Shown: positions 1,234-37,828, numbered from the stretch's first letter. The stretch is DNA of 44,196 nt from Microthyrium microscopicum (GCA_010405405.1 MU004233.1:11327-55522), one strand, 5' to 3'. Notes: a model not told the origin generated them from the sequence alone. Numbers and translations: made by a program.

Positions 1234-4200
1234 GAACTTTATATTTATAATATATACGTAAAATTTAAATAAGTCTCTTATAGTTTTTAGGTATAGTAAT
1301 ATTATTATAACGTAATACATTTAGTATAATAATATCTTCCTTACTATCTATCTCCTTATTAATAAAAGTGCCTCTATATTTATTTATACCTATCTAAGTA
1401 TAAAAGTACTTAGAAGGTATCTTATTAGTACCCTATATAGAATAACCCTTCTTAAATATATTCTTCTTTTTTTTTAGTAAATAGTCCTTAATATATAGCA
1501 AATTACGAGTAATTAGTTCCTTCTTAATCTCTTCGTTATAGACATTAAGCTTAGAATAATAGCCGTCGTTATTATAGTAGTTATCATTATCTAAGTTATT
1601 AGCTACCTTTTCTTTAGTAATTAATAAAAGTTAAGAGAAAGTAACCTTAGAAATACTAGGTAGCTAATTTATAGGACGATTAGACTTAGGCTAAATAGGT
1701 ATATTAATTATAGATTAAGTTTTATTATCTAACTTAATATTTACCTTAGTTTATATTTTATCTATGCGAGCTACTAGTTTTAAACACTAGTTCTAATTAG
1801 TCTTATCTTAACTAGCCTTAAATTTTAGTAGCTTATTATATTTAGCTTCCTTATTAGTATATAAAGTAGGAAAATAGTATTTTAAATTAGCTAGCGTATT
1901 TAGGCATTACTTACTAACGAAACTAGAATCTATATTATAGCAAACTTAGTCTAAGAAAGATATAACTATAGCGTAGTACTTAATTAACTTCTTTCTAAGT
2001 ACCTTTAGGAAATAAATATACTACCTAGATAATTAGGTCTTAAGGGCTATAAGTTCCTTATTAAATACGCTATACTTGCTATTATTAAATATAGTAAAGT
2101 TGCTAATATAAAAAGGAGGAAGTCATTTTATAAATATAGTATCTAGAATTTTGCTAAACTTATCTATATAGTAAAAGTAACTTAGTTAAAATATACCTTA
2201 AACTTTACAAGTCTTAACTAATATAGTTATATAGTTAATAGCCTTAGCCTAATAATACAAAGCCTAGTTATAGTTAACGTTAAATAACTTCTACTTCTTT
2301 AGGTTAGCTAATATAACTAGTAAGATATACGTTAGTACTATTACAAAATCTAATACGATATATAACTTAATAGCTATATTTCTATCTATATTAAACATAA
2401 CGTATAAGATTACGTACTTAACTATAACTATATAGAGTAGGTATAATATTAAAATTAGTAAATGTTCGTATTTCTAAAAAAAGACATTATTACTAGACTT
2501 GCTAAGTAGAGTCTTAACTATATACTTTTAATAAGAGTAATATATTTTAATAGTGTTAGTAAATTAATCTAGTAGTAAGCGCATAAGATAGCATTTAGCG
2601 CGTTAGCCTATACGGAAAAACTAGGCAAACGTTTAGTTTTCTATTACAAGGTTATTAGCTAGCTCTATAATTAATACGTCCTAGAGTCTTTTCTATAAAC
2701 CATTCGTAGCTATACTACTAATAGGCATACTAAGTAAGACTAGGTAGATTAAATAGTTATAAATTACTTACTATATAACTTTATTATATTCTAGTTAACT
2801 ATAGTAGGAACGAATAATAAAGATATTCTACCTATAAAGTTAAGTATATAATTTAGCGAAACTAAAGGCAGTTAGTAACTTATATTATTAAATTAGCTAT
2901 AGACTAAGGGGTCTATAAAATATATAACCTAGGATTATTTATATTCTAATATAAATAAGTTAATATAATTTTACTTATTATTTAAAGGAAGAGTTTACTT
3001 ACAGTTAGGTTTTACTATTTTATATCTATATAGTTAGCAAAGACTATACTTTTCGCTCTTCTTTAGTAGCACTCTTAACCTTATTAGTATTTAACTACTA
3101 GCTCTAACCTTTAATTATAGCTTTATAAACTATTACTATAGTAGCTTATATCTTATCTAAATAATTAGTAATATACTCTACTACCTACGCTAGCTTAGTT
3201 AGTAAAGGCATATACTTATCTATACTAGTTAATAAAAGGAAAACGCTACTATCCTTATATAGATTGTACTAGGCTAAATCCTAAATTGCTTCTTATATTA
3301 GACTATATAGAGTAGCACTATTAGCGCCTATAACGTATTGCTTACTAATAAGGCCTTAACGCCTAAACCCTATAATATAACTATAACGAAGAATTTTAAC
3401 TATTTCTATATAATTCGTTAATAGTTACTCTTTATTAGTAGCAAGTAACTAAAAGTTCTTAAATTAATTACCTATAGTAGTAGCATCCTATAGGTAGAGA
3501 AGTATAGAGTTAATACGCGTAATATTAAATTAATCGTCCTCTTTTTCTTTATTAAAACTTAAACTAATAATATAAGTATAGGTATTATCCTAGTACTCAT
3601 TATAAGTATCGTAATCTTACTAGTTATAAAAGTTAATTATAAACTGCTTATAAGTTAGCTAATACTTCTATTGTAATTAGTACTATAAAGCAAGATAAAG
3701 AGCCTTATAGAAACTATAACTCTAAAATATTATACAAATATCTTATAAATAAAGAGTTACGTAGAAACTATAACCCTAAAATTTATATATTTTTCTAAGG
3801 CTATAGTTTTTACTATGCTCTAAGTAGATAGTAAGTAAGTTAATTAATACGTAATATAGAGTAAACTTATAGTTATAGAAACTAGATTAGGCTTATTACC
3901 TTCTAAGTAGTAAGGTCTAACTCTATTATTTATAACTATAGTTATTAATCGCTAAGTTTATATTTATTATAAGATAGGTTTAATAACTAATAACTTAATC
4001 TTATTATAAGAACTATCTTCTAATGCCTTAAATGTCTATTTAAAAAGCATTAGGTTTATAATCTATAAATACTAGGTATTAGCTAAAGACTTACCTACTT
4101 TAACATTATTTATAAATGTTTAATATAATATAATAAACTCTACGTTTATTAGATTAAACATATACTCTATAGAGGTTTATAAGAAGGTAAGGAGCATTTT

Positions 4201-7200
4201 ATTACTATCTAGATCTTTAGGGTATTCTAGGTTAAAATTATAATTATATATAGTAAGTAATTCCTCTAGGCTAAGTAGAATTTCTATATCGCTTATCTAG
4301 TTATTTATAAACTACTATATTATATTCTATCCTATTTTGAGATACGTATTAAGTAACTAAATTTTGTTAGGTACTAGGGTACTAGAAAAGCTAATAATAT
4401 ACTTTAGATAGCTAAGCAATATTAAGAAATTACTTATACTACGAAAACTTAAGGATTTTTCGTTTTTAATATAGTATATTTTATTAATAATAATTTATTA
4501 TAGTTTTAGATTACTAGTTTACTAAAAAACTAGTCGTTAGGTTTTATCTTCTGCCTTTTTCTTCTAGTCCTTATAGTCGTTTTCTAGTTTAGAGTTATAA
4601 AACAACGCTTTATTATCTTCTTCTACCTATACTATCTTTGCCTCCTACTTAGTAGCTATAATAGCGTCTATATCTTTAATAACTAAGCTAGCTTTAATAT
4701 TATTATTAATAGTAGTATTAGTTTGTCTAGCTAAATCGCCCTTAATATTATTAATATCTAGCTTTACTTTGCTATATTAGCGTTATTTAGGGCCTACTTT
4801 TAGTATAGTATTACTAAGCTTTAAAGTAGCAAAGGCGCAAGCTATTAAGGTAGTTTATAGAACTAGAATAATTAAATACTCTATCTCTTCTTTAGTATAA
4901 TTAATATTAGCATTATACTATTTATTAAACTATTTTATACTAGGTAGAATTAACTTAAACTAAGTAGAACCTTTATACTGCCTAGCTTACCTATACTATT
5001 AGGCAAAGCGTAGGAGAGGAAAGCCTTATTTATTAACCTTAACGTATTAAACTTCTTTAGTAGGCAAAAAATCTAGCAAATAAACTAGGGGTTACATATT
5101 ACTCGTATTACTTTCCTATAATATATTTATACTAGCTAGATAAACTATAATAGTTAGAGCGTAGAGTTTAGTACCTTTTAGAGTAGGATTATTTATAATT
5201 ATATTATATATTTTTTAGACATATATATTAGTATATGCCTTTACTACTATAAAGGTAGTTAGAGTTTTACCTAAACTTATCTTACTTACTATTAAAGCTA
5301 TATAAGTAAAGCGATTAATTAGTTTGTAGATAATAGCTACGTCTAAAATATAAAGTTAGTAATAGGTTATAAATAGAGTAAAGGAAGAATTTAATTTACA
5401 TTACTAAGACTAGATATAATATATAACCTAGGAATATATATACTAGACGTACTTTAATATTCCTAGACAGCATATTTACTAGTAGAGTATTACTAGGGCA
5501 AGGGTAGAGTTAAAAACTTACTAATTATTTAAGAGACTAAGGGCGTAACTATAGAGTTACTACTATAATTAAATAGATTTATATAGCTAGGCTTGTCTAA
5601 TTTATAGTTTCCTAAAGAATACGTACCCTCTTTTATAGTATAACGATAAGTATCTAGAATATTATTAGGTATATCTCGTCCTAGTACTTTTAAAGCTACT
5701 TTAAAACTTATAGTATAATCTAATATCTCCTATACTATAATATTTTATACTACTAATTTTAATTAACTAATAGTCTAGTTAAGTATAATTTTTTCTTTAT
5801 TACTTATCTTAGCACCTATAGCTTAATTAATTATAAGTTTACTAAACTTACGTACTATAGTAGTATACTAATTAGTTACTACTTCGTCTAAATACAAAAG
5901 TTAAGAGTAGTAATTAGTAATAGCACTAGAAAGACCTAAGCTATACTAAATGCGTTTAACGTTAGCCTAATACTTAACTTCTTATATATCTATAACTAAA
6001 GGACTAACCTATTTGACTTATAGAGCTAATAATTACTTAATTATAGCTATATAGGCTATAGGTTAGAGACGACAAGTAGGCTATTTTTTTATAGCGCCCT
6101 TTGTGTTTTTTATAGTATATACTATTTTAGAAATTTCCTCTATTAACTAGTTCTTTAAATTTAGGCCTATATTAAGCATATTGCTATCTAGTAAAATACC
6201 TATACTACCTACTCTAAAAATAATACTATTACTACGCAAAGTTTTTAATACTACTTTACGTTTAATATTATCTATAACTATATAAGTTATATTATTATTG
6301 TCTAGATTATCTTTATTATTCGTACTAAATAGATTCTTTTACTACTATATAACAAAATCGCGTTTAATATTGCTATAGAACGTAGTAAAAAGGTTCTATA
6401 TAGTTTAGTAATCCTTAAAAGGATCTAATTTACTATACTTAGCAATTTTCTATTTCTAATTTAGGAATAAGTGTAGATTTTTCTTAATAGTATTAATAAT
6501 ATAATTAAAAGTAAATAATACTTAGTTCTAATCCTTAATAAATATACTATATATATAATTTATACTATATAGATATATCGTATTTATATCTCTAGGTTAA
6601 TAGACCTCATTAAATATTTTAAGTTTAGCTTAAATAAGGTAGTAAAGGACATAAATAACTAACTTAATTAGGTCTATAGGTTTTAGCCTATTACTATTTT
6701 TAAACTTAATAGGATAGTCTTACTCATAATTAGCTAGCTAGTTTAGGTACTAGATAGGAAATTAACAATATAAAGTATTAAGTACTAACTATTAAATAGC
6801 ATTATTTTCTAGGGAGTTATAAAGAATTTAGAATATAGAGATAATTTAAGGTTTTATAAGCATAGTGTAAGCTTGCCTAGTTACGCCTTTTGCATCTATA
6901 TTCTATAATATTTATACGAACTAAAGATACATACTAGCGTTAGCTTATACTAGATTATTATTAGTAAATAGGTCTAGGTTAATATAGGTTAGACAATACA
7001 TACCTTATATTATTATAAACTTTTCTAAATCTTTAGCGTATAGTAAGTCTAAACCAAGATATAAAGCTAGCTCTTAATTACTTAAAGTGCTACTATATAC
7101 CTACTAGTATAAACTATCTAATCCTTTAAGTACTTTAAACGTTATATATCCTTTTATTACTATAGACTCCTTCTATTTATTAGACTATATATATATTCTT

Positions 7201-8069: not shown

Positions 8070-8120
8070 AATAGAGGATATATATTTCGTAGGAAACTAT
8101 AATTTAGTAAAGGGATAGCT

Positions 8121-8530
8121 AAGATTCATAACCTAGAAAATTAGGCTACAAGAGGAGAAAATATAAACTTAAAGAAGAGATAACTAAGATTTGTAACCTA
8201 GGAAACTAGGCTACAAGAGGGGAAAATATAAACTTAAAGAAAGGATAACTAAGATTTATAACCTAGGAAACTAGGCTATAAGAAGAGAAAATATAAAATT
8301 AAATAAGGAATACCTAAGATTTATAACCTAGGAAATTAGGCTATAAGAGGGGAAAATGCAAAATTAAATAAGAAATAGCTAAGAACTATAACCTAGGAAA
8401 TTAGGCTAAGTAAGAGAAAAGGAAAACCTAAGTAAGAGAAACCTAAAAACTATAATCTAAGAAATTAGGATACAAAATTAGAAGAGATAGGCTAAGTAAT
8501 AGGATACCTAAAATATATAGCCTAGGGATT
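8121..8530 (+). repeat. 65-bp tandem repeat (~5 units plus degenerate copies) with an internal palindrome
   Basis: Units start at 8121, 8186, 8251, 8316 and 8381. At 8191-8216, TTGTAACCTAG-GAAA-CTAGGCTACAA forms an 11-bp stem with one mismatch. Confidence 0.9.
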
Positions 8531-9439
8531 TTAGCTAGGACTATAGAAAGTAGATAATATAGAGTAAACGTAGTTTTATTAATTAGTATTAGGTTTAGAA
8601 TAGATAATAAGATAGTAGGAAAGAGTTAAGAGGAAGTATAGAGTAATAACTTTAGTAAAAAGGTTTTAAATGTATACAATAGGCTAGCTACAGACTGCAA
8701 CCTAGGAATTTTAAGGCCTATCTACTTAAACTAAACTTTAGAATTTATAAAGAATTATAAAGAAGAAATAAAGGAACTATAAACTTAAAATGCTTTATAC
8801 TTTTTTAGTAAACCTATAGACAAATATTTCGCTAGATATTAATATACGCCTTCTAATATTTAAAAACTTAGCAAATAATTCCTAAAAAGGGAAGGCATAA
8901 TATATTAGGTAGGTAGTAGCGTTTTAATATAGATATAGAGTAAGATAGAGTATAATAGTAGTTACTCTTACCTATATTAGAATATAGGAGTATAAGAACG
9001 TAGGATAGTAGGAGCTAAGTATTAGTGTACTAGATCTATAGTATTAGGAATAACTATATATAATTATAGCATAAGACTTATATTCTAGGGTTATAAACTC
9101 TAAATAGTATATGTCTATTAGTAATTTAGATCTACTTTATATCTTATTTCGTTTAAGTATCTATAATTCTAGGGTTATATTCTATAGTAAGTTATATTAT
9201 CCTTCTAAATAGCAATATTCTTTCTAGCGAATTTAAAACTTATTACTAATTCCTAAGAAGATATTTAATATATTAGATTTGCATTATTCTTATATAATAG
9301 TATTATTAGGATAAATAATAGATTAATTACTATTAAATAATACATAGGTATAGTGTAAATTTTTATATTTAATTAATAGGGCTAGGTAGTTTACTACTAT
9401 ATATTATCTACCTTATAATTCTTTTTATATACTAACTAA

Positions 9440-10770
9440 CTTTTATTATTTATTCTTTTTATTTCTTTTTTTATTTGTCCGTTATTACTAATATAGTTAT
9501 TATAATTATTAATATTATTATTATTTAGTTTTTTATACTCATTATAATAAAGATAAGATATTATATAGTTAAGTTAGAATTATAGTCACTATAAATCGTA
9601 TAACGTAAGTATATCTTAGTTACTATAGAAGAGAAGATTTAGATAATTTCTCTATTCTCTATAGCTACTACTTCTTCTTCTTCTTGTTTTTTGGCTATAG
9701 CTTTCTTCTTAAGCTATAGACGACGAGCTTCTTTGCGTCTAATAAGGATAATAGCTACCCTATATATATTATTACTAAGCCATAGTAGTATAGTAGAGTG
9801 ATAAATTATAGTATCTTAGTTAAGGCTAACTATATTAACCTTATTAAGTCTAGTAAATTTAATCTTTAATTCCCTAGTTACTATAAGCTTTATAAGGAGA
9901 TTAGGGTTCTATTTAAACTTCTGCTCAGTTCTAAAATTTAACGCTTTTTAATAAAAGTAATCTTTCTATCTTTTTTATAAGGCCTAGTTATTACTATATT
10001 TTATACCTTAAGCTATCTTAGGGGATATATTGTTTACTACCTTTTTGATTAATACTTTATACTTAGAGTAAATAGCCTAGGTAATTTTAATATAATATAA
10101 TACGCTATAAACGCGAATTAGCTTATACTATTAGTTGTAGGGTTATACTCTTTTAATTATACTATCTATTCTAAAAAGGTATTTAATAGAATTTTGTACG
10201 TTAGTATAGATATTAAAATAATCTAGTTAAAGGACTATTAGAGAGTTAGATAATAGATATAAGAATCTAAACTCTTAGTCTAATTATATAGTTAGAAAAA
10301 TAGTATCCTAGTATACTAAAGAGATAGAAACATAGTTAATTTAGTTATAAGGTATTAGAGGCAGTAGCTATAATCTATGCATAGCTAAAGGAATAATACT
10401 ACTAATATTATTAATAATTATCGCTTAGGTAGAACTAGTAAGAGTTATTAGCGACGAAAGAATAGATACTAAACTACGCTTATCCTACGATATAGTTAAT
10501 ATTTTAGCAATTCATCCTATCTAAACTTTTTAGCTATTGTTCTTTATAACCTTAGCTTTAGTAGGTTTAGCTTTAGTTGCCTTAGTCTACTCTTTAGTTA
10601 GTTTAACGTTAATAATTAATCTAGTAGTGTTAGACTTAACCTTCTTATCTAAAGCTTTAGTCTTTTTACTAGTTATATTTACCTTCTTTATAGTAGTTAC
10701 TAGCTAACCTTATATACTTTTAGCTATACCTATAGAAGAGTAGTTATTACTAGCTATTTTGCTAGGTATA
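9440..10770 (-). pseudogene. RIP-inactivated NADAR (YbiA/DUF1768-like) domain protein with Lys/Ala-rich N-terminus and charged C-terminal tail
   Basis: Minus frame reads QKFK*NPNLLIKLIVTRELKIKF (~9855-9923), matching KFxQNxxLxxxLxxTG. It then reads WLSNNIYRVAIILIRR (~9735-9782), matching WxGxNxxGxxLxxVR. The upstream HY...SP...W spacing is also compatible. Confidence 0.75.
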
Positions 10771-10861
10771 ATAAAGAACTGCCTACTTATCTAAACAAAA
10801 TATAACTAAGGAAATAATAACTAAAAAAAGGTAGGAATAAAAGGGAATAGCGACTAAGAGC

Positions 10862-11175
10862 CTACTAAAAACTATAATCTAGAAAGTAGAGGAAAAAAGC
10901 TAGGGAAATACTAATAAGCTACTAAAAACTACAACCTAGGAAGTAGAGAGAAAAAGCTAAGGAAATACTAATAGGCTGCTAAAAACTACAACTTAGGAAG
11001 TAGAGGGAAAAAGCTAGTAAAATACTAATAAGCTGCTAAAAACTATAACCTAGGAAGTAGAAAGAAGAAGCTAGTAAAATACTAATAGCTTACTAGAGAC
11101 TATATCTTAAGAAGTATAGGGAAAAAGCTACTAGAATAGTTAAGAGGCTACTAAAACATACAACTTAGGAAATAA
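10862..11175 (+). repeat. 57-bp tandem repeat (~6 units), each with the AAAACTRYAACCTAGGAA motif
   Basis: Units start near 10862, 10919, 10976, 11033, 11090 and 11148. Confidence 0.9.
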
Positions 11176-11716
11176 GTAAGAATTGTTATATATTTTATTA
11201 GTAACTTAAGGATGAGTAGTAAGGTAGGCAAAAGAGCTATAAGAAGCTAATAGAAACTGCAACCTAGGAAATTAATATAGGCTAAAATATAGGAATAGAT
11301 AATAGAGTAGTTTAAAGAAAATTTAGAGGAAATTAAGACTAAATAGTTAGAGGTTTTTAGCTTAACCCTAGCCTTATTAATATTTCTAAGGTTTTATAAT
11401 CCTTAATTTCCTAATATAATGCCTAGTATATACTACTTTAGGTAAGTACAATAAGAATTATGTAGGTTAGATATTTTATAACGCTAAGCCTTATAGTAGA
11501 CTACTATTTTAAGAAGTAATGAGTAAATTAAATATATATAGCTACTTCTTATTATAGTAATAATAGGTAATAAAGGGGGCTTTGCTAGCCTAAATAGGTA
11601 AATATTTCTAACAATATACTCTATATTAAAGGTACTATCTAAAAGCTATAACTTAGAAATATTAGGAAGTAAGTTTTAGCTTTAAATCGTTAGATAAAAG
11701 TTACAACCCTATAAAT

Positions 11717-12350
11717 ATTTAGTTATTTTAGGGTTGTAGTCTTTATGTAGCCCTTTATTAGGTATATATTCCTCTCTACTATTCTTTTCCTAGAGCTATT
11801 TTTACTATATACAAATTTAGTTATTTTAGGATTATAGTCTTTATGTAGCCCTTTATTAAGTATATATTCCTCTCTACTGTTCTTTTCCTAGAGCTATTTT
11901 TCCTATATATAAATTTAGTTATTTTAGGGTTGCAATCTTTATATAGTCCTTTATTTAGATATATATTCCTTCTTATTATTCTATTACTAGACTTTTTTAG
12001 CTATTATAATAGTCGTATATTTTAGAGTTATAGGTTTTGTATAGTCCTTTATTATATATATAATCCTACCTATTCTATACATTTTTAGCTATTATATTTA
12101 TAGTAAATTTTAGGGTTATAGTTTTAATATAGTTCTTTATTATATATATATTCCTTTCTACTATAGTTGTACTAGAAGGTATATTTAGGTACTATAATAG
12201 TAGTGTATTTTATAGTTATAGTTTTCAACTAGCTCTTTGTTATATAATTTAATATTATACTTATAGTCTATAAATATAGTTAGCTTTATCTAATAGTTAC
12301 TTAATAATGTTTTCTAGTATAATATATACTATTATTAGGTTATAGTTTTT
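11717..12350 (-). repeat. 98-bp tandem repeat degenerating rightwards, carrying the same motif in reverse orientation
   Basis: Units start at 11717, 11815 and 11913, followed by looser copies. Each has a variant of TTTTAGGGTTRYAGT, the reverse complement of ACTRYAACCCTAAAA. Confidence 0.85.
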
Positions 12351-12589
12351 ATATATCTCGTATTAGTTATATGCTATATTGTTATATATAAGGTAGTATA
12401 AAATATATACTTATTATATTTATTATTAATATTATATTTTCATATTTACAACTATAACTATACCTACTTAGATGTTACGATTAGTATATATCTTGTTACT
12501 ACTTTATAAAATGTTATCCTATATGTTTATATTGTCTATTCTATTCTCTATTATAAACTATTACATTGTAGCTATATATTATTATATTT

Positions 12590-13739
12590 ACTTTAGTTAG
12601 ACAAGTTCTATAATCTTAACTAATAATTGCTAGGAAGTCTACGTAGGTTATAGTATAATCCTACTATTTTCTATCTTACTTTAGACTATCTTATTTTACC
12701 TTCTATTTTCGTTAAGTGTTCGTAGAGGCTATTAATACTATAATTAACTATTTATCTTCTCTTACTATTAAGGTAGTAAATAGTATAATGCTAGTCGTAT
12801 AGTATATAGTATAATTCTAGTTTACTGTAGTGTTGTAGCTATAGATGTCTTATTATATATATAGGTATATTAGTTTTATTTTTAATTAATTTATCTATAT
12901 CTAACTCTTTTTCGATAGAGTTATCTATTTATTTTTAAGTTATTATAGAATTTATATGTAGGGAAGGTAGCTCGTAGTCTTGGTTTGTATAATATTTTTA
13001 GATTAATTATAGTTTTTATAGTGTATATTATTTGTCGTTATTGTTAGAGTTGTCTACTTTGCTAGTGTCGTTATTATTAATTAAGATTATTTCGTAGTCT
13101 TTTGTAATATTGGTTTAGGAGTTATTAGGGAGATTAGGTTCATTAGTATTTAGATTATCTAGTTATATTTAGGTATATTTAATCTAATTATATTTAGATT
13201 TATATACTTACTATAAAATTATTAAAGACTTTATATTCTTCTATACTATCTAGTCTACTCTCTTCTTTGCTACTTAGCTTAACGCTACTTTTGCTATCTT
13301 TTAGTTTAGTTTCGTTACCTACGTTATTAACGTCTAATATATCTTTATATTTACTACTCTTAAGTAATTTGCTAATATTTTAAAACTCTTAGGACTTATC
13401 TATAGAAGGAGATACCTAAGAGTATATCCTTTAAGCGTAATATTATTATAGTATCGTTATAGTTAAACTTTACTTCCTTAAGTTATATAATAACCTAGTT
13501 CTACTAGTTAGTTAGACTTGCTATATATTTATTAGTTATTAGTTATCTCTTATAAGGGAGTAAGTACAATTAGTTTTCTATTACTTTATACTACGTATTT
13601 CTACGTTATTATTTATCTTACCGTTAATTATCTTTAATATAGCCTATTTAGTAGTGAATCTTTTAGGTTCCTTTTGTATTAGTACTAGTTATAACATATT
13701 AGCTAATGTTTCTATTGCTGCGTAAGAGCTACTAGACAT
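12590..13739 (-). pseudogene. RIPed gene relic, unknown product; possible chromodomain-like C-terminus
   Basis: ATG at 13739 is followed by a coding-like frame (MSSSSYAAIETLANML). Near the end it reads YSINSLYEHLTKIEGKIR*SKVR*K. Confidence 0.45.
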
Positions 13740-14479
13740 TGTATTTTACTATTGCTCTATTATTTAATAAGTAGGTTATTAATTTTTACCTATATATACC
13801 TTTGTCTAACTAGATTTACCTATTCTTATAGCTAATAATAGTAAAATAGCCTAATCTTATCTATTAATACTTATAGTTATCCTATTAACCTAGTAATATA
13901 TATTATTAAGATATTAACTAGAAATGCTATTTTTTGGGGTTATAAATTTAAATAGCTTCTATATAATATTATAACTACTAGTATTATAATTCTTATTAGG
14001 CGAATTTCCTTATCTTAAATAATTATTTTGTTTAGGTATATAACTTCTATCTATTAAAAGCGCTGCCTAAGCTATCCTTACTAAGCCTATATAGTCTTTG
14101 CTTATTATTAAAGACATTTACACTTAGGGTTATATTTAGTTATCTAGTGTACAATTTAACTTAAAGGTAAGAGTAAGAAGTATTAAGTCTATAGTAGTAT
14201 AAGGAAGTAAAGGGTTTTGCCTAGGACTATAGAAAAATAAGGAATTAAAAATGCTTATATTAAGTATATTAGTAATAGGGATAGGAGGTAGTTTTAGGAA
14301 GTTTAGCTCTATATATTCTATTAACTTTAAACTCTTAATATAGTAGTAGTAAATATATATAAGTTATTATTTTGGGTTATATATTTACTTTATAGTAGAT
14401 TAGAGTTCTATATTAAAAGTTTAGAATAAATCTTGTACCTAATATAAAGAATATTTAATTTTAGTATTCTATACTATTT

Positions 14480-17200: not shown

Positions 17201-17249
17201 TACTAGTTATATACTTTAAAGCTAAAGGTTTTAGAATATGTCTAGTTTG

Positions 17250-20200: not shown

Positions 20201-21250
20201 TTAGATATTAACCTTAAAGAATAAGTATAGTTTAGCTTAATTACGTCTACTACTAGAGAAGGTAAATCTAGTAGGGTAGATAAAGAGGATAAATAACTAC
20301 TAACTAACAGATAGCTAGTATTAGGATAGTTAAATAAATAATTATAATATTGGAATATAAAGTCGTCTATTTCTTGTAATATAAACTAGTAATCTTTAAG
20401 TAAAGGATAAGGTATTATCTAATAACGTAGGATATCTTTTTACTAAGTATTATCTTAAGTAGCTATATAAACGTTAGGATTAAGAGTATCTACTACAATG
20501 TTATTAATATAAGTTATTTCTATTAGCAGTATAGACTATAACTTATTACTATAGGATTCTTTATTATTACTATATTAGAGCAAGGAGATATCTAGGCTAT
20601 CTATATATTTAGTAGAGTATAAAGATTTATTATTACTACTGCTTAAGTATAACTCATCTATGTTTTTAACGTAATTTGCTACGTTATTATATAGTATATT
20701 ACCCTTAGATTATATATTATCTATATTCCCTTCCTTATAGTAATTATTACTATTATATTTATATCTTATATTATAGGTAGGTAGAGAATAAATAGTAATA
20801 GTAATAAAAGGGAGGTTATTTAGCTTAAGTATAGAGTTAGTTACTATAGCGTAACTCTATTAGTTTTAAACTACGTCTAGGAAGTTACTTAATATCATCT
20901 AAACTTAAGGTAGTAAGATAGGTAGAAAGGTTAGAAAATTAAATATAACCTCTTATAATCTAGTTAGAGTTAGTTATAATATAACTACTAGAGGTATACT
21001 TTAATTATACCTAAATAGCCTTAATTATATTCTATGTCGTTACCTACCCTTAGGGCTTAGGATAATAATATCTAGGTTTTAAGCTTATATAGTAGTAGCT
21101 ACTACCCTTTAATAAGATTGCTAATTTCTTAATAATTTGCAAAGAGGGTCTACTATAATTATAACGTTTTATTCTATTAAACGTAATAAAATTTAGATAA
21201 GCCTTAGTACTATCTAGTATTATATTTAGGTAAAGATATTTAGTATATAT
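17250..21250 (-). pseudogene. RIPed long gene relic resembling an uncharacterised fungal protein family
   Basis: Long coding-like frames with de-RIP motifs IYLG...IYVYFPNL...W...LFPAI...LQxxP, L..LW..I, AGL...Y...KEIF...PF...LEQL, FGVRVERR and LGL...YG.IW. The resemblance to fungal hypothetical proteins is from memory, not from a search. It contains the listed 66-aa ORF. Confidence 0.6.
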
Positions 21251-21366
21251 ATAATAGTATAGATAAGGTTAGGATAGTATGCAAAATTAATGTCTTAGAG
21301 AATATTAGTTTACGTAATAAGTATTAATTATAGAATAAGTATAGGTAGTTTAGAGTTTAAGTAGCA

Positions 21367-21432
21367 TTAGTATAGGGTTAGTATAGGGTTAGTGTAGGGT
21401 TAGTATAGGGTTAGTATAAGGTTAGTATAGAG
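21367..21432 (+). repeat. 11-bp telomere-like tandem repeat (TTAGTATAGGG, ~6 copies)
   Basis: Direct reading: ttagtataggg ttagtataggg ttagtgtaggg ttagtataggg ttagtataagg ttagtatagag. Confidence 0.9.
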
Positions 21433-21553
21433 TAATATAAAGAGATCTCTATAAAGTATAGCCTTAAAATTCTATACTATATAGCGGCTTTAGAGTTAAC
21501 TTTACTAAACCTTTACTATTATTAAAAGGGTTTAATTATATTAGTTAAAGAGG

Positions 21554-21719
21554 AACCTAAAAACTATAGCCTAGGAATTTATTACTATATAGTAGTTATA
21601 TAGTTAACTTTATATTTTATAGTATTTAAAATATATATATACTCTATAGTTTAAGAGATACCTAAAAACTATAGCCTAAGAATTTATTACTATATAGTAG
21701 TTATATAGTTAACTTTATT
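21554..21719 (+). repeat. Two ~60-bp direct repeats about 106 bp apart, each starting with the shared motif
   Basis: CCTAAAAACTATAGCCTARGAATTTATTACTATATAGTAGTTATATAGTTAACTTTAT occurs twice. Confidence 0.85.
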
Positions 21720-21879
21720 AATACCTAGTATATATTTTACTAATAACGCTAAGTATAATAAAGTAAGGATAGGTCTTTTACTAGTAGTATATAGTAGAAT
21801 AATAACCCTAATAGGGAAGTAAGTATATTAGTTAAGATATTAAGAGGAACTTATAAGATATAGATAAGTCTTTTATTAT

Positions 21880-24540
21880 TCTAAATAGCTTTGTTTACCT
21901 TAATTTTGCGTTCTATCTTATTGCTTATTCTATCTTGCTACTTATATTAGGGTTAATAGTAACTTCTTTATCCTATACTAGCTTATATATAGCAATTGTT
22001 ACTAAGTAAAATATACTAATCGTTCTTATAGGTAGCAAGCTAGATTATATTACTTATAACTATATCTAAGGTAGAGAAGGTAAATATAGTAGTAGAGGAC
22101 GTAGTAGCTACGAAGGAGGAGGACGTAGTAGCTATAGCAATACTAGGCTAAGATTAAGTTCTATAGAAAACTTCTTTATCTCTAAATCATAGTTACTTAT
22201 AAGAGCCTATAGTTAAATTATACTTTATACTAGAATAGGGTATTAAGAGTGAATAGGTAGCTTTCTCTACTACTAGCTAGTCTTTCCTAACCTATACTAA
22301 GTAACTAGGGTTAATAGCAACTTCTTTATCCTATACTAGCTTATATATAGTAATTATTACTAAACTAGGCTAAGATTAAGTTCTATAGAAAACTTGCTTT
22401 ATCTCTAAATTATAGTTACCTATAAGGAGCTTATAGTTAAAATATACTTTATGCCTTATAATGCTAGAATAGGGTATTAGGAGTATTTTTATTTAAGTAG
22501 ATAGGTAGGCTATGTTAGTAATAGTGAATTAGTCTTAGTAGAACTTCTAGAAGTAGAATATTAAAGGATAGCTTCTTCCTTAGCAATAGTAGAGTTAACA
22601 CTATAGCTATTATACTTTTTAAGATAACTTTATTAATATTATGCGTATCTTTTAGGACAACTTTATTAATGTTATGCTTATATAACTCTAGATAACTATC
22701 TCTTTTAAGATGCTACTGTTATTCTAATACTTAGCTTATTCTAGTCTAATTATATAGTATTAAGTATACTTATTACCCCTTATAGAAAGTCTAAGTCGTT
22801 AGATATACTATAAATACTTAAAGGAATAGCTTATAAGTAAGTACTATAGTTAATAAGAGGCAATTAAAATAACTAGAAGTTAGGAAACTACTATCTACTC
22901 TCTTCTATACTATTAGCTAGTCCTTCTTAACTCGTGCTAAGAGACTAGGGTTAATAGTAACTTCCTTATCCTATACTAGCTTATATATAGTAATTGCTAC
23001 TAAAGTAGATTAAGCTATAGCTATTAGTTTTTTTAATATATCTTTAATAAGAAGCTATATCTATAATAATAGAATATATCTATAATAATAGGATGTATTA
23101 CTAATAATAGAAACTAGTAATAGTAAGAAATTATATTATTAATAAGAGGATAATCTTTAGTTAGGAATATATATATATTAATAAGAAAAGTATATTAGGT
23201 TAAGAAGAGAATAAGCTATCCTCTATAGTAGATAAGCTCTCTACTAATATTATGCTTTATAAGAAGGATAGTTAGAAATATTTTATAGAGTTTTTAGATA
23301 AAAGCTACTATGCTAGGCCTCTAAGTTAAAGTCACTTTTTAAGCTACTATGAAGGATAATTAAACTAATTAGTTATTATATTGCTTTACTATATTAGTTA
23401 GGAAGAATATTAGGTAAGTTATTAGTATAGAAAATAGCCTAAGTATTTATAAGGATAAAGGCGCTATAATCTAAAGAGTTTTATTAATAACTACTCTCTA
23501 CTCTCTTAAATATCTATTTACTCTTGTCCTAAGTATTACTTAACTTATATTAAAGTATTTCTTTAGCTAAAGTAAGAATAGGTCCTTTGCTAGTAAATAA
23601 GGAGTTATACTAACGTACTTAACGTTATTAGGGAAGGATAGTTAGTAGGGTCTAGTAACTACCTTAATAAATTAGAATAAAGAGTTTATAAACACTAAGA
23701 AGATTCTTTCTACTAATTTTTTAGCGCTTTATTTAGTAGGTAATCTTTTTAATACTATCTTATTATTATATCTTATAGAACTAATAGGTATTGAGTATAT
23801 AATATTATAGAATATTATCTTTAATTAGGGTTCCTACTATTTTTATCTATTTAGTGAGTTTAGACTTAGCCTTTTTGTAAAGCTTAGTAAGGAAGCTATT
23901 AATAATTTCGTTATTAAGCTAATTAAGCAGTTTAAGAGTTTAAAGGTCTTTAATAGTAATTAGAGTTCTACTAATATTTAACTATAGTATCTACTATTAG
24001 AACTGCTCTTTATAAGGTAGGTAGTGCTAAAGCTACTCCTAAGCGTATTACTCCTACTAATAACTATAAGATTAGTAGTTAGTTTGTGCTTAAATTTATA
24101 ACGAGATTAAGTAAATAAAGTATCTACGTTAACTAGTTATACTTATTAACTACTAAAAGCAAACTACTCCTTAAAGTACTTCTACTACTAAGCGCTAAGA
24201 TTAAACTATGGAGTTTGCTAAGTTTTATAAGTTTAAAAATCGTTAAATTATAATTTAGACTAGTAATTTACCTAGTATAATAACGTTAATCTAGTAGGCT
24301 CTATCTAGTAAACATTAGACTAGTTATTTAATATCTTAAAATAGTATTAAACTAGATTACTATATATAACTAGGCCTACAAAAGAGGTTAGTAATTATAT
24401 AAAGGATTATACCTTTATTAAAACTTTCTTACGCAGAGTTAAAGATATATATCTTAAGCTTTATTTAGGATATTTTATAATTTATACAAACTATTAGAGT
24501 AGTATATACATTTCTAAGAAATTTAACTTGTTTCTATATA
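21880..24540 (-). pseudogene. RIPed spliced gene relic (one or two genes), low-complexity product with internal repeats
   Basis: Candidate intron at 24376-24432 (GTAAGA...CTAAC...TAG). A ~58-bp module recurs near 21948, 22307 and 22946 (de-RIP ~AVHEPVQDEEVAIDP). A ~110-bp module recurs near 22142 and 22365. Confidence 0.5.
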
Positions 24541-24570
24541 TTATCCTCTATTCTATTTTTAATACTAAAT

Positions 24571-24925
24571 ATTAGGTTAGCGTAGGGTTAGTATAGAGTT
24601 AGCCTAGGTTAGTATATAGTTTAAATACTAGCCTAGGGTTTAAATATTAGCCTAGGATTTAAATATTAGCCTACCTATATATAGGGTTAGCTTAGGGTTA
24701 GCCTAGGGTTATCCTAGAGTTAGCCTAGGTTTAAATGCTAGCTTAGGGTTTAAATATTAGCCTAGGGTTTAAATATTGGCTTGCCTATATATAGGGTTAG
24801 CTTAGGATTAGCCTAGGGTTAGCCTAGGTTTAAATGCTAGCCTAGGGTTTAAATATTAGCCTACCTATATATAGAGTTAGCCTAAGGTTAGCCTAGGGTT
24901 AGCCTAGGGTTAGCTAGGGGTTTAG
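24571..24925 (+). repeat. Compound telomere-like array of TAGGGTTAGCC (11 bp) and TAGCCTAGGGTTTAAATAT (19 bp) units
   Basis: The two unit types alternate in higher-order blocks separated by CCTATATATAG (three times). Confidence 0.88.
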
Positions 24926-25199
24926 AGTACTAGAAGTTTAATCTAGTTAACTTTTTAAGTATAGTTTATTAAATAATACTATTAATATTATATACGTTAT
25001 TATTATTTATGCTTATACTAGTATTATTTCTATATATATTCTTAATCTATTTATATCTTAATTATAATTATTACTATAGCAAGTTATTATATTCTTATTA
25101 TTATAAGTTAGTATTAGTAGAAGAGAGTTATATTAGTAGCAAATATAATAAAGAAGTTGAATATTAAATTTATTAATCTTAATTTAAATCTATCTATTT

Positions 25200-25792
25200 A
25201 CTTTAGTATTTAAAGTATAAATGTTGTCCTATAATTTAACTTAAATTGTAATAACTATTAGTCGTTAGAGTTATAACTCTAATTAATCTTTATTAGAACT
25301 TAAACCCTCTAAGTCTATATTATTCTCTAAGTCTAAGTCGTCCTTATTTAACGTATCTAAGTACTTAAGACCTTTATTACTATTATTATTATTACTATTA
25401 ATATTATTACTATTATTATTATTATTGTTATTATTAGTTATAAAACGTTAGGAAGGTTAACTATATATATATAGAATTATAAACGTTTAGATAAAGTTAT
25501 ATAGCTAGTCTATATTATTAGGATTAAAATCTTTCTATAATTTAATGTCCTATACTATTATATTAGCTAGTATTAGCTCTAGTAAGATTATTAATTATAA
25601 AGGGTTATAAAATCTAAGCAATTCTTTAAGGCGTACATTTAGTTTAGCTTATATTTACTCTTTTGTTAATTCTTCTATTTACTCTTCTATTTACTCTTCT
25701 ATTATTTTATATAGGTAGTAGGCTTTACGTAAAGAACTTATAAGGCTTATAATAATAGATATTATAGATATAGATTAAGTATTAGTAGATAT
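25200..25792 (-). pseudogene. Small RIPed gene relic with Glu-rich segment and an Asp/Asn homopolymer
   Basis: Frame reads SLRKAYYLYKIIEE*IEE*IEELTKE*I*AKLNVRLKELLRF. The in-frame (AAT)n tract at ~25375-25437 is likely former poly-Asp. Confidence 0.45.
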
Positions 25793-26316
25793 AGAAAGAG
25801 AAAGATAGAGATTTAGTATATAAGGTATTTATATTTTAATTTATTATATAGAATTAGGTAAGAGCAAAGTAACGCTTAGTTAGTTACTATATCTAACCTA
25901 GGGACTAGAAGTTACTTACTTACGTTAAGGTATTTCTTACTATTACTATATTGTTATAAATAGTAATTAAAATATTAAGGTTATAATTATAACGTATAGT
26001 AAGTTCTTAAGGTCGTTAGTATTAATATAAGACTACTATTAAGTAACTAGTCTATCTTAAGTAAGTAGTAGCCTAGTTCTTTAACTTTTCTTACTTATAA
26101 TTATTATATAAAAATTAAATGCTAGATTCTAGTTTAGAAAGTTCTAGTGTCTCTAAGCTAGATTTCCTTAGCCTTAGGTATTCTAGTATATATAGTTATT
26201 TTACTTCTAGTTTTTAAATTTTATCTATATTAATAACTTATATAACGTATGCCTTAATGTTTCTTTTTATTATAAATATAATACTATATTATGCTTTCTT
26301 TACTACTAAAGCCTAA

Positions 26317-26504
26317 GAGGTAGATAAAAACTATAGCCTAAGACTAGTATACTACGATTCTTTCTTATTATTATAAAGAGGTATATAAAAGTTGTAACCC
26401 TAAATTAGTATACTACGTTTCTTTTACTATTACTATAAAGGGGTATATAAAAAGTATAACCCTAAAGTAGTATATTATACTAGGTTATAGGTTTTATATA
26501 CCTC
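26317..26504. repeat. Cluster of three forward and one inverted copy of GAGGTATATAAAA plus the shared motif
   Basis: Forward copies near 26317, 26378 and 26440. Inverted copy TAGGTTATAGGTTTTATATACCTC at 26481-26504. Confidence 0.8.
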
Positions 26505-26779
26505 TAAGGTTTAATTTAGATAAATATAATAATGTTTTACGCTTCTTTTATTATTACCTTAAGGGAGCATAATAGAATTATAGTATAAGATTAATATATA
26601 TCTTATACTAAGTTGTAGTTCTATATTATCTATATAGGTTAACAAGTAGTTAATTCTTATTACTTAGGTTCTAAACTATAATCTAAATTATAACTTTAGT
26701 ACTAGGTTATTATTATTATTTAGGTTTTAAGATATATTTTATCTATAATTAAGCTTATACTATCTATATAAATAGTACT

Positions 26780-27545
26780 AATTATTAAAACTTAAAAGCT
26801 AATACCTTAAGAATCTATTTAATAGACTTCTCTATTAGGATAAAGTGCTTTAAACTCTTAGTTTTAAGGGCCCTAGGAGTTAGACGCTATTATGCTTCTA
26901 GCTAGTTATTTAGCGACTACTTTTGTTATCTATAGTAGTTTTAAAGTAATCTTAAAGTCTAGTATATACTTAGCTTTATTGCTAAAGGAGGCTATAAAGT
27001 TATTACGTTTTCGCTAGATAACCTTAGTACTAGTATAGTATTAGCACTAACTAAGACATAATTTTAGTTTAGACTTATATATAAATAAGAAACTATAGCT
27101 AGCTACTTAACTATTTCTAGCTAATAGTCTATATATTATATTTAGTAATAGCTCATTAAACGTTAGGTTTCTATAAACTACTTACGTAAAGATAAATATA
27201 AAAGTATTTTCTAGTACTACGCAAATAGCATTTATTATAGCCAACTTTACGATTAATATTATCATAGTCTATAGTGAGATTAGGCTAATTATTAAGGATG
27301 TTAGTAATAACTTTAATTATATAGCTACTATAACTAAATAGGGCTACGTTTATATTAGGTTTTACTATAAAGGCGTGACTAGATAGCTATATTATAAGTA
27401 TTAATAGCTAGATATAAATAGAAGATACTATTATTAAATCTTACTATTAGTATGCATATTATAGTGCTTTGCACGCTTGCTTCCTAATTAATAACATTAA
27501 AGGCCTTAATTATAAAGTCTTACTAAGTACTTAATATAGTAATAT
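26780..27545 (-). pseudogene. Small RIPed, probably intron-containing gene relic with a Cys-rich patch
   Basis: Frame reads NRKVGYNKCYLRSTRKY (de-RIP C-x2-C-x7-C), followed a few codons later by a GTAAGT donor-like site near 27186. Confidence 0.4.
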
Positions 27546-28766
27546 AGCTAAAATAAGGTTTATAGGTTAGTATATATAGTAGGACTTTCTATATAAAATT
27601 AACTTACTTATTTACTTATTTTATATATTACTATAATATAAACTATTATAAAGAGTAGAGAGTAGAAGAGAAAAGGATAGAGGTAGTAGAGTAAAGGAGA
27701 AAGAGAGAAGTATAGAATAAAAGAAGCAAAGAAAGAAGCTATAAATATAGGTAATATATATATTAGGCTTAGCTAGCGCGTAGGTAATACTATAATTACC
27801 TTTATAGGTAGTATAGTAAACTAGTACTACTTTAAGAATAATAATTAACTTTATATATAAGTATAGAAGCTAGAAACTAGGAAGAAATATTAAATATTAG
27901 TATTAGGAGTTAAAGTAGATATAGATAGATACGTAGATACTAGTAGGTATCTTTATACCTAAGGTAATAGTAGAACCTTATAGAAATTAATATAAGAAAT
28001 ATAGTTTACTTAAGCTAATTTATTTATAAATACGCCTTTAAGCTTTCTATTTAAGTCTTATAATAAGATTAATATATTATTAGGAAATATCTACTAAATA
28101 TATTATCTCTTATTTATTCCTAGATATAGAAGATAGTCTCTAAATAAGGTTAATTAATCTAGAAATAATGAAGAATAATGTTAGAATAGAGTATAGTTCT
28201 TATACTTTTAAAAATAAGATACCTTAACTAATATTAAGCTTTATTGCTAAGACGCGCTGCTAAATTTGATTTAGTAACTAGCTATAATACTAAAAGGGGA
28301 AGTACTTAAGTATATATTAGTATTAGGAGTTAAGGTAGATAAGAGTTAAGGTAGATAGAAGTTAACGTATATAAGAGTTAAAGAGCTAGGAGCTAGAGCT
28401 AAGAGCTAGGAGCTAGATTAAAGAGTAGATATTAAATATATATACTAGTAGTTAAAGCTAATAAAAGCTAGGTACTAAGAGTAGTATATATTAGATTTTA
28501 GTATTAGGAGTAGATAATAAATATTAGTATTAAGAGTTAAAGTAGATAGCTAGGAATTTTTTTAGGGAATTTTCTTAGGTTTATTTTAACTCTAGCGTAT
28601 TTTTGCTAAGTAAATTTTAGGTAGAAAGGTTTAGGTAGAGCTAGAATTAAGGTAAATAGTAACTAAATATTAGTAGTAGTAGCGTATAGTAGTATATATT
28701 TAAAAACTATAAACCCTAACCCTAAATTTATTCTAACTTTAGTACTATAGTTTAGTCTAAAATTTT

Positions 28767-28845
28767 ACTATACTAGTACAATAGTAGTACGTAACTCTAC
28801 TATTATATAAAGTTAAGGTTATAGGTTTAAATCCTACGTATAGTA
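28767..28845 (+). tRNA. RIP-mutated tRNA pseudogene, possibly ancestral tRNA-Gly(GCC), with a ~7-nt intron-like insert
   Basis: Complete cloverleaf: acceptor ACTATAC/GTATAGT, D stem GTAC/GTAC, anticodon stem TAACT/AGTTA, T arm ATAGG-TTTAAAT-CCTAC (de-RIP GTAGG-TTCGAAT-CCTAC), discriminator A. A T-run lies ~30 bp downstream. The anticodon position now reads ACT. Confidence 0.8.
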
Positions 28846-28857
28846 GAGTTACTTATT

Positions 28858-29169
28858 TAATCCTTACAAAGGATATTTTTTTTTACTATAGTAAAAAGAC
28901 ATAGAAAATAAGTAGCTTAACGAGCTAAATATAGATGCATTATCTATTTATTTTTTGGCCTTATGTTAGTAAAGATAGAGGTAATTTTATATATTTTAGT
29001 AACCTTAGTAGTAGTAAGGTTACTAGGTTAATCCTTATAGAGGATATTTTTTTGCTATAATGAAAAGACATAGAAAATAAGTAGCTTAACGAGCTAAGTA
29101 TAGATATATTATCTATTTCTTTTTTAGCCTTATGTTAGTAGAGATAAAGGTAATTTTATATACTTTTAT
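28858..29169 (+). repeat. Two ~140-bp direct repeats (period ~171 bp) immediately downstream of the tRNA
   Basis: TAATCCTTA...AAAGACATAGAAAATAAGTAGCTTAACGAGCTAA...GGTAATTTTATATA occurs at 28858 and 29029. The spacer contains the hairpin AGTAACCTTA-GTAGTAG-TAAGGTTACT. Confidence 0.88.
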
Positions 29170-30802
29170 AGTACTTTTAGGTAGAAGTAACCTTAGTAGT
29201 TACAAGCAAATATTAAGATATATTAAAATTAAATAGCTAAATTCCTCTACAATTAGCGTATATAACTTTATTAACGTTAAAGAAGTAATATAAGTCTTAG
29301 AACAAAGATATACTATAGAAGTTGTTAATATCTAGTAAGATATAGCGCTAAAGTTATATAGTAAGTAAATAGTAAGAACGTATTAAATTTTATAGCTAAT
29401 ACAATTTACTAGATAGTTATTATATAAAGATAACATAAGGTAATTTCATACTAAGTAATAAGAACTACTTTAATATACTTACTAATCTTATATAGACTAA
29501 TAAATTTGTCCTTATTATTATACTCTTATATCTTAATACGCTTTAATGCTCTATAAGTCTAGGCCTTTATATCTAAGTAGTATTAATACTAAAAGTATAG
29601 TAGACCTAAAGGAGGTTTGCATAGTAGAAGGATATAAAGTATATGTAGGGTAGTATTATTAGTAGAATAGAAGAGCTTATTACTTAATAACTCTCTAAGT
29701 TTTTCTAGGATATATTCTAGGCTACTTTAGTTAGTTAGTATAATAAGATTAGTATTAATATTAAGCTCTATTAAGTATATTTACTTTAATATATTTTATA
29801 GTCCTTTTAGAAACTTACTTATCTCTCTAAGGGCTAATTTATTAAAGTGCTAGTTATGTGTATGTTTATTATAGTTTTGCTATATTTTATAAGTAGTATA
29901 TTGCTATTATAAGTCTTTAACTAGTATAATTAATAGTAGAATAGGTAGTTTCCTTTTATATAGAGTTTATTATTAGAGAATATAGAAGAATAGTATTTTT
30001 ATAATCGCTAGGTAGAAAAAAGTAGTAGTATTAAAGAGTAGAGTTAGTAATATTTTAGTTTAGGGTTAGGTAAGGGTTTAGCTAAGGTTAAAGGAACTAG
30101 TAAACCCTATAATAATATGCTCCTTCCTTTATCTTTTATATCTTAATTATTATCTATACTATCTTCTTTAGTATATACAAATTATTTAATATTTACTATA
30201 ATAGAGTAGGGTAGTACCTATTATTACTATATCCTAGTCTTATAATAAGATACTAAAAAGCTATTTAAAGTCTATAACCTAGTTATTTAGTAGTCTTATA
30301 TTATAATAGTTAGTAACTATAGTACGTAGAGTAAATATATTTATTTAAGACTATTAACTTTTAGCTTAATTACAGTATAGCGTAGTATAGCGCAGTGTAT
30401 TAGTAATCTAGATATTACTATAGGCTTCTTAAAAACTATAGCCTAGGAGGAATATTAAAAAAGCTAGGTTATAGTTTTTAAAGAGTCCTTTAGAGTAAGT
30501 TACTAAGACTACTAGAATTAAATAGAGAGTTAACTTTAGACGAAGTAAATATAAGTAAATAATATATAGAGCTATAGGGTAGAGTAGTATTATACTATTA
30601 GGTATTAGTTTAGTAGGTATTGTCACTAATAGTTAAAAGAGAGGTTATATTCTATTAGTAAGTTACCTTACTAAGTCTCCCTAACGTAGTATTTTAATAA
30701 TAGAATTTTTACTAAGTCCTAACTTCGTACTATTAGATCTATCTACTTAATAAGAGTATTATATTATATAAAATTATATATATTTAATAGAGAACGTTAA
30801 CC

Positions 30803-31111
30803 TAAGTAATATAAGCTTTAGAGTATATTTATTAAGTAGGTATTAAAAGAGTTATAGAGGTATAGAGGTATCTCTCTACTAAAAATATAAACTTTTAGTA
30901 GTCTAATATTTTGCGTACAAACTAACCTAACTCTAGCTCACGAACGTCTACTATAATTTAAGTAATATAAGCTTTAGAGTATATTTATTAAGTAGGTATT
31001 AAAGAAGTTATAGAGGTATAGAAGTATCTCTTTACTAAAAATATAAACTTTTAGTAGTTTAATATTTTATATATAGACTAACCTAACTCTAGCTTATAAA
31101 CGTCTACTATA
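30803..31111 (+). repeat. 153-bp tandem duplication (period 156 bp) at the junction of two RIP regimes
   Basis: Copies are 30803-30955 and 30959-31111. Copy 1 has TTGCGTACAAAC and CTCACGAAC where copy 2 has TTATATATAGAC and CTTATAAAC. Confidence 0.92.
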
Positions 31112-37803: not shown

Positions 37804-37828
37804 TTTCCTACTATAATATAGAATAATA

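Follow-up and report, generated by a model that had tools for sequence, protein, structure and literature searches.

A tract of Microthyrium microscopicum degraded by repeat-induced point mutation, probably a copy of a subtelomeric repeat family, adjoins a RecQ helicase relic

Introduction

A RecQ-type helicase is the hallmark of the telomere-linked helicase (TLH) regions of fungi, and TLH genes in turn are that of fungal chromosome ends. The TLH-containing regions of Fusarium oxysporum are described as having a size of 6-13 kb and being present in 22-43 copies at the chromosome ends, where they lie alone or as arrays flanked on either side by telomere repeats (10.1101/2024.02.27.582403). Both these regions and the TLH subtelomeres of Magnaporthe oryzae are portrayed as multicopy chromosome-end DNA that carries a RecQ-type helicase gene (10.1101/2024.02.27.582403; PMC1635262), and the Y' elements of yeast are likewise presented as helicase-bearing subtelomeric repeats that are thought to aid end maintenance (10.1101/721753). 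Here we analyze a stretch of 44,196 nucleotides (nt) of Microthyrium microscopicum (GCA_010405405.1 MU004233.1:11327-55522), hereafter referred to as the window, which contains a block of almost 30 kb of DNA degraded by repeat-induced point mutation (RIP) and, 2 kb past the right edge of this block, the relic of a RecQ helicase gene. We favor, with moderate confidence, the reading that the block belongs to a multicopy subtelomeric repeat family, being a copy that was killed by RIP and that lies next to a TLH RecQ relic.

Chromosome-end DNA that has been altered in a comparable way is described in other fungi. Thus, the telomeric AT-blocks of L. maculans are stated to contain a RIPed RecQ TLH gene (PMC3105345), and some classes of the subtelomeric AT-rich repeats of A. 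flavus are reported to be without discernible transposable elements and to have a constant polarity to the telomere (PMC9910759).

Results

The whole window is extremely AT-rich, with a GC content of 15-28% per kb, and its RIP indices are extreme throughout (TA/AT 1.4-2.1; (CA+TG)/(AC+GT) 0.01-0.30). No open reading frame (ORF) of at least 100 amino acids is present anywhere in it when the standard code is used, and in composition it matches a fungal repeat tract degraded by RIP. A scaffold gap of 10 N (1224-1233) separates the left flank (1-1223; GC 17.7%, (CA+TG)/(AC+GT) 0.082) from the RIP-degraded block (1234-30955; GC 24.5%, index 0.198), which is followed by the right flank (30956-44196; GC 18.0%, index 0.049). 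The block is less RIP-mutated than either flank; its RIP level varies rather little between 1.2 and 30.7 kb and then changes in a single step at ~30.75-31.0 kb, within a 156-nt tandem duplication (30798-31111) that straddles the switch and constitutes the right edge of the block. The initial annotation of this DNA had proposed that the RIP level of the block is distinct from that of its flanks, and these values agree with it.

Evidence that the block is repeated in the genome comes from the contigs of four runs (X1-X4) of one sample, which were compared with positions 11200-31199 at a likeness of at least 80%. Between 582 and 3099 contig pieces per run matched this stretch, and most of them were 90-99% alike to it, not identical. 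In X3, 757 pieces were at least 99% alike, 902 were 95-99%, 1093 were 90-95% and 347 were less than 90% alike. Of the kinds of change listed, 97-98% were transitions (2062 of 2109 in X3; 1041 of 1072 in X1). The stretch from 11.2 to 31.2 kb is multicopy, and its copies diverge in the manner of RIP, as had initially been proposed for the block. A self-comparison in the transition-blind R/Y alphabet revealed no large duplication within the window, and the partner copies of the block must therefore be located at other places in the genome. In every run, the summed contig depth over 21.9-31.2 kb exceeded that over 11.2-21.8 kb ~2-3-fold; depth does not equate to copy number, and this unevenness fits nested copies. 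Among the differences in X3, a G or C in the window faced an A or T in the other copies 1577 times and the reverse was seen 485 times (a ratio of ~3); the window copy may be among the less mutated ones.

These data bear directly on the possibility that the block consists of single-copy host genes into which RIP leaked from neighboring repeats, a possibility with which the lighter RIP of the block relative to its flanks would agree. Over 11.2-31.2 kb it is already contradicted by the hundreds to thousands of diverged contig pieces that match there, and a GC content of 24.5% without any ORF of at least 100 amino acids is far beyond what leakage would cause. We consider this explanation very improbable.

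Some of the copies are joined to telomere repeats. Firstly, a loose contig end of X1 before position 22010 reads TAACCCTAACCCTAACCCTAACCCTAGCGG, that is, (CCCTAA)4 stands directly before 22010; this telomere-bearing contig of ~381 nt is 85% alike to 22010-22358 and has (CCCTAA)n at its left end. X2-X4 have contigs of 381-382 nt with 32-33 unaligned letters on the side of 22010 where the loose end of X1 lies (these letters were not shown). Secondly, a loose contig end of X4 before position 11836 reads CCCTAACCCTAACCCTAACCCTAAC, which places telomere repeats inside an array of 98-nt units that is described below. Many further loose ends and rearranged joints are present among the contig copies.

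The level of RIP in the window has consequences for the identification of genes. With stops read as X, no Pfam family was detected on the minus strand of 1234-31000 or on the plus strand of 31000-44196, nor on four short pieces at E values of up to 10. A word-indexed search for protein homologues with 1801-5700 minus (region 100-620) gave no match at E values of up to 10, and phmmer found no match between 3601-5700 minus and 1.84 billion representative proteins. Because about half of all G and C have been mutated, the silence of Pfam and phmmer carries no information. By the same token, the initial statement that the block contains no transposase, reverse transcriptase or DUF3435 recombinase is unreliable, because even the SNF2 and RecQ relics described below are invisible to Pfam. 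We used a RIP-aware matrix, in which codon-to-residue log-odds are summed over the ancestral codons that RIP could convert to each observed codon, with context-dependent rates of C-to-T and G-to-A change and a background derived from the same model. In simulations, RIPed genes retained 50-60% of the intact BLOSUM62 score when aligned in this way. An earlier version of the matrix, built on the codon background of the window itself, was discarded: it was driven by composition, detected no signal, gave nonsensical hits with position-specific scoring matrices and produced a block-chain score of 19.8 against a null mean of 30.2. A test that chained high-scoring segment pairs was also discarded, being badly parameterized and chaining noise over the whole window, and regular expressions for RING and zinc-finger motifs were useless here, with Cys and His both decaying to Tyr under RIP.

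With the RIP-aware alignment, residues 25-439 of E. coli RecQ matched 32834-34081 on the minus strand with 129.4-132.5 half-bits, whereas the shuffled null (maximum over six frames) had a mean of 49.6, a standard deviation of 3.1 and a maximum of 55.2. Motifs I, Ia, II, V and VI align in register, as does part of the RQC region. The assignment of 32834-34081 minus to a RIPed RecQ helicase gene is clear. The frame stays stop-poor up to ~36240, consistent with the long N-terminal portion that telomere-linked helicases possess; N-terminal C2H2 motifs and a TLH domain are further marks of such helicase regions. The whole TLH-like relic (32834-36240, minus strand), whose helicase core and RQC region occupy 32834-34081, lies outside the block, and the right edge of the block meets its 3' side. 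A wider screen took 3439 ORFs of E. coli K-12, from the first 4.0 Mb of its genome, and scored 3027 of them after setting aside 412 as hydrophobic. No other helicase among the 3027 scored comparably with RecQ, and the screen, which lacks the power to detect viral genes or eukaryote-specific transposon genes, yielded no further relic (best score, 92.1). Its top 22 candidates, each examined with eight shuffles, fell on tandem arrays or were hydrophobic or low-complexity proteins, and none was accepted.

In the initial annotation, the block was proposed to be a mobile or virus-like element outside the classes known. As a mobile element, the block would be the corpse of a large autonomous unit, either Starship-like or of an unnamed class, whose mobility gene is unread or lies beyond the gap at 1224-1233. 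Starships are multigene elements of tens of kb that occur in Pezizomycotina and can be RIPed, and the block resembles them in its size of tens of kb, its multiple genes, its Pezizomycotina host and its RIP. That the block is multicopy and RIPed, that it has a private motif family (see below) and that its right edge is sharp and lies in the 156-nt duplication would all agree with such an element, and relics of transposases, reverse transcriptases and tyrosine recombinases would escape Pfam at such a RIP depth. However, neither the repeat analysis nor the self-comparison revealed terminal inverted or direct repeats that frame the block, the left end is an assembly gap that defines no element end, and the right edge meets the 3' side of the TLH relic instead of unique host DNA. 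Unlike a Starship, with its DUF3435 tyrosine-recombinase "captain" at one end, its defined ends and its target-site duplication, none of which could be shown for the block, the copies have unequal extents and end at telomere repeats, being cut at internal points, and their depth is not uniform. An element of no known class is not supported by these observations: the telomere-joined copies, the RecQ neighbor 2 kb away and the uneven depth are better explained by nested subtelomeric duplication than by one transposing unit. We regard a mobile element as doubtful.

At the other end of the block, the sequence supports the assignment of a minus-strand gene relic (~2300-5421) to a SNF2-family ATPase. 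The initial annotation had recognized this gene, and it is detectable by RIP-aware codon alignment only. Its N lobe (4101-5421 minus) was delimited with RIP-compatible regular expressions and RIP-aware alignment. Motif I reads SLGKT (5263-5277 minus), which is compatible with GLGKT under RIP and follows a Q motif; motif Ia is represented by IIVYLAS....X.E. Motif II reads IIINKIYYIKN (4462-4494), corresponding to DEAHxIKN; it shares the frame of motif I and aligns to VIIDEAHHLKN. Just downstream of it is a motif III-like stretch, FSSTLVPN, that aligns to LTATPVQN. The spacing of ~260 codons between motifs I and II is long.

The targets for this analysis were six real SNF2 proteins from E. coli and plasmids, of bacterial and archaeal type. 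For all six, the top match of the Q/I/Ia segment (A) in the whole window was in the tile 4926-5421 minus, and for five of the six the best ordered pair of A with the II-III segment (B) was 4926-5421 plus 4101-4761. The best target reached 99.7 for the ordered pair, against a null mean of 71.9 and a maximum of 82.1, a score attained by none of 120 shuffles (z 7.8). For the other five targets, the respective pair score was attained by 0 of 40 shuffles in two cases and by 2, 4 and 10 of 40 in the remaining three. Whole-protein RIP-aware scores were not individually significant for any SNF2 target; only the segment test was. Neither SNF2-rel_dom nor Helicase_C was found by Pfam on the relic at E values of up to 10, as expected for a relic so mutated. 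A probable C lobe lies in another reading frame (2300-2781 minus). Reading by eye, we noted at ~2600-2760 a motif V-like stretch, ISSIATNGL, and a motif VI-like stretch, IIELANNLVIENXTFAXFFRIGX, whose part XTFAXFFRIGX (2603-2635) is in that other frame and belongs to a regular-expression class with 10 matches in the window against 4.45 expected. The best C-segment tile in the ordered chain was at 2300-2781 for two of three targets, with unremarkable scores that are not significant alone. Separately, possible RIPed versions of LTGTPxQN (SNF2 motif III) occur on the minus strand at 16537-16560, 18181-18204 and 1777-1800, all in one frame phase; this class has 3 matches against 1.35 expected, none of which is backed by the segment test.

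A private motif family, AAACTATARCCYTARR, is spread over the block. When up to two mismatches are allowed, the window contains 27 matches, against 5.9 expected and a number not reached in any of 100 shuffles. Twenty-five of them lie within 3711-30448, and there are nearly none outside the block; the family was thus rightly recognized in the initial annotation. The core of the motif is approximately AAACTATA(A/G)CC(C/T)TA(A/G)(A/G), one half of which is CCCTAA-like, and it is common to tandem arrays with units of 57, 62, 65, 98 and 105 nt. The motif is present as single copies at 3695-3833 and 30417-30480, in arrays of 65-nt (8101-8554), 57-nt (10796-11190) and 62-nt units (26315-26486) and, in the opposite orientation, in an array of 98/88-nt units (11693-12262). 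An 11-nt TTAGGG-like array (TAGGGTTAGTA; 21344-21444) is followed by motif-bearing 105-nt repeats (21434-21718), and a 112-nt repeat has three dispersed copies in 21905-23014. TTAGGG-like 11-nt arrays (TAGGGTTAGCC) recur within 110/80-nt higher-order repeats at 24565-24921; arrays of this 11-nt type are found at 21344-21444, 24565-24921 and 30043-30088. The hexamer CCCTAA occurs 13 times in the window (shuffle mean 3.7, maximum 9) and TTAGGG 25 times (mean 4.6, maximum 12), and the sole double telomere unit, CCCTAACCCTAA, is on the plus strand at 28714-28725, ~40 nt upstream of the tRNA relic described below.

The pattern of these arrays is relevant to a further explanation, according to which the tract is a patchwork AT-rich isochore made up of unrelated RIPed transposon relics and captured SNF2 and tRNA fragments beside an old TLH relic, without any single repeated unit. 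The nine tandem-array stretches (seven motif-bearing and two of the telomere-like 11-nt type) that split the block have differing periods, the summed depth over 11.2-31.2 kb is uneven, the copies have many loose ends and rearranged joints, and most coding-like stretches have no recognized family, all of which would suit a patchwork. On the other hand, one motif family spans the block, with 25 of its 27 matches inside, and the RIP level, fairly even over the block, changes in one step. A patchwork is possible but unlikely in our view; it overlaps with the subtelomeric reading, subtelomeres often being mosaics.

The tRNA gene that had initially been read in the block is borne out by Rfam RF00005, which matches 28767-28845 on the plus strand over its full model (1-71) with 46.2 bits against a gathering score of 29 and an E value of 7.6e-7 for the whole window. 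ARAGORN missed it and called no tRNA in the window. The relic has a GC content of 27%, all four stems are retained, and the anticodon loop has 14 nt (7 of them extra) with the anticodon ACT. The ancestral anticodons compatible with RIP are GCC, GCT, ACC and ACT, and the short variable arm would favor Gly-GCC as the ancestor. Directly after the relic is a tandem repeat of a 169-nt unit (1.8 copies; 28857-29168) with hairpins and T runs: in 28846-29168, a hairpin (ATCCTT...AAGGAT) and a T run follow the tRNA relic and are repeated within the 169-nt unit. The number of these units varies among contigs. The bin of 28857-29168 had the peak summed contig depth in X2-X4, three of the four runs, and in X1 the peak was in the adjacent bin. 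With the tRNA relic on the plus strand, the claim that all genes lie on the minus strand fails; the stop-free stretches of at least 45 codons within the block number 57, with 33 on the minus and 24 on the plus strand.

A NADAR gene, also part of the initial annotation, was not confirmed. None of seven targets (E. coli YbiA and six phage NADARs) scored above the shuffled null in the RIP-aware alignment, the best reaching 48.2 against a null of 44.2 with a standard deviation of 4.1, whereas simulated RIPed NADARs reached 75-168 with targets of ordinary similarity. Two of the seven targets touched a shared site at 9861-10217 minus, a NADAR-like patch (EQKFKXNPNLLIKLIVTRELKI) that is not confirmed as a NADAR domain and in which only ~20 codons at 9861-9920 (KFKXNPNLLIKLIVTRELKI) resemble the KF-QNP-L...TG of the family. 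The counts obtained with regular expressions for NADAR motifs were at or below expectation.

Large DNA viruses can contain SNF2 helicases and tRNA genes, and relics of both are present here, as they would be if a large DNA virus or virus-like element with SNF2, NADAR and tRNA genes had integrated. Nothing supports a viral origin, however. NADAR was not confirmed, the tRNA is on the strand opposite to the SNF2 relic, and the context is telomeric. No viral hallmark (capsid, packaging ATPase or polymerase) was seen as a relic; the search for such genes was the screen with 3027 E. coli ORFs, a weak proxy that includes replication proteins such as DNA polymerase II, and nothing in it rose above noise. 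We consider an integrated virus scarcely credible.

The window has further repeats outside the block. Tandem arrays occupy both of its ends: units of 194/405 nt in the left flank (1-1188; GC 17.7%) and, according to the tandem-repeat analysis, units of 94/282/133 nt at the right end (43221-44196). Both arrays have a very low GC content and no kinship to the motif family of the block. The right flank also contains a large palindrome (37824-38529) with arms of 197 nt and 91% complementarity and, nested in it, arms of 115 nt with 96% (38092-38326); it is bracketed by a 213-nt direct repeat (37591-37803 and 38712-38924).

Discussion

How might a copy of a multicopy subtelomeric repeat family, as we read the block, have come into being and decayed? 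A stretch of tens of kb would have been copied among chromosome ends, possibly by ectopic recombination or break-induced replication, and would have carried a SNF2 ATPase gene, other genes, a tRNA gene and motif arrays with telomere-like cores, beside a TLH gene. The copies would have been nested and truncated, and some would have been capped by new telomeres. The multicopy state, the telomere junctions and the uneven depth are the observed parts of this step. Because the DNA was duplicated, all copies would have been mutated by RIP, from C to T and from G to A, over sexual cycles until no ORF was left; of this step, the RIP signature and the transition-only divergence are seen in the data. 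The TLH unit, probably having had more copies or having been duplicated for longer, may have been mutated further, which would give rise to the RIP step at ~31 kb. One past role of the helicases may have been to maintain chromosome ends without telomerase, a function that has been proposed for Y' genes of yeast and for TLH genes of fungi. The region today is an inert AT-rich tract.

Several points weigh against a subtelomeric repeat copy. First, there is no telomere array within the window, the longest run being the two units at 28714. Second, the contigs with telomere repeats are short, show 85% likeness and stop inside a repeat, so that they may represent interstitial tracts. Third, the copy data cover 20 of the 30 kb (11200-31199), and all four runs are from one sample. 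Fourth, an "empty site" might be seen in joints that skip from 13846 to 30822 or 30978; they have only 20-21 letters on one side, and we made no use of them. Finally, the literature compared does not describe TLH regions with a SNF2 gene, and most coding-like stretches of the block are without a family, so that the relic of a transposase or recombinase could be among them.

By analogy, the block would resemble the TLH-containing regions of fungi or the Y' elements of yeast, with a SNF2 gene added. Copies of the TLH-containing regions are described as lying, whole or truncated, beside telomere repeats (10.1101/2024.02.27.582403; PMC1635262), and here we find a RecQ relic, a multicopy state and telomere-joined copies. 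The TLH-containing regions are 6-13 kb in size and largely intact, whereas every gene here has been destroyed by RIP, and here a further 30 kb with the SNF2 relic, the tRNA and the motif arrays is located on the 3' side of the TLH relic. The Y' elements differ in helicase family and in size; moreover, telomere-like motifs lie between the segments here, in contrast to the Y' arrays, which are split by telomere tracts. The likeness to the repeats of L. maculans and A. flavus consists in their being AT-rich, RIP-mutated and located at chromosome ends; the GC content here is lower (16-28%), and the parts of these two accounts that deal with the repeats make no mention of a SNF2 relic (PMC3105345; PMC9910759). 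For a minichromosome of C. higginsianum, a SNF2_N/Helicase_C protein is reported that is not placed in a subtelomere in the passage concerned (10.1101/721753). In the article texts searched, we found no description of a SNF2 gene in fungal TLH subtelomeres.

The presence of the SNF2 relic prompts consideration of a variant, which we put forward as speculative and rather improbable, namely that the block is the RIP-killed remnant of a Y'-like selfish subtelomeric element of filamentous fungi that was built around a SNF2-family motor, not RecQ, and spread from one chromosome end to another beside TLH units. The telomere-like motif arrays would then be sites of recombination or of telomere seeding. 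If this were true, such an element would represent a second, undescribed class of helicase-bearing chromosome-end element.

Conclusions

The analysis opens no new class of mobile element or virus. If the interpretation of the block as a RIP-killed copy of a subtelomeric repeat family holds, its practical lesson is greater than its biological one: at such a depth of RIP, Pfam, phmmer and word searches are silent, and a codon-level, RIP-aware alignment still recovers relics, by which an anonymous AT-rich tract can be placed in a chromosomal context. For the biology of fungal chromosome ends, this interpretation, if it holds, would add a SNF2-family gene, a tRNA gene and telomere-like motif arrays to what is found in helicase-bearing subtelomeres, and it would show what such a subtelomere looks like after complete inactivation by RIP.

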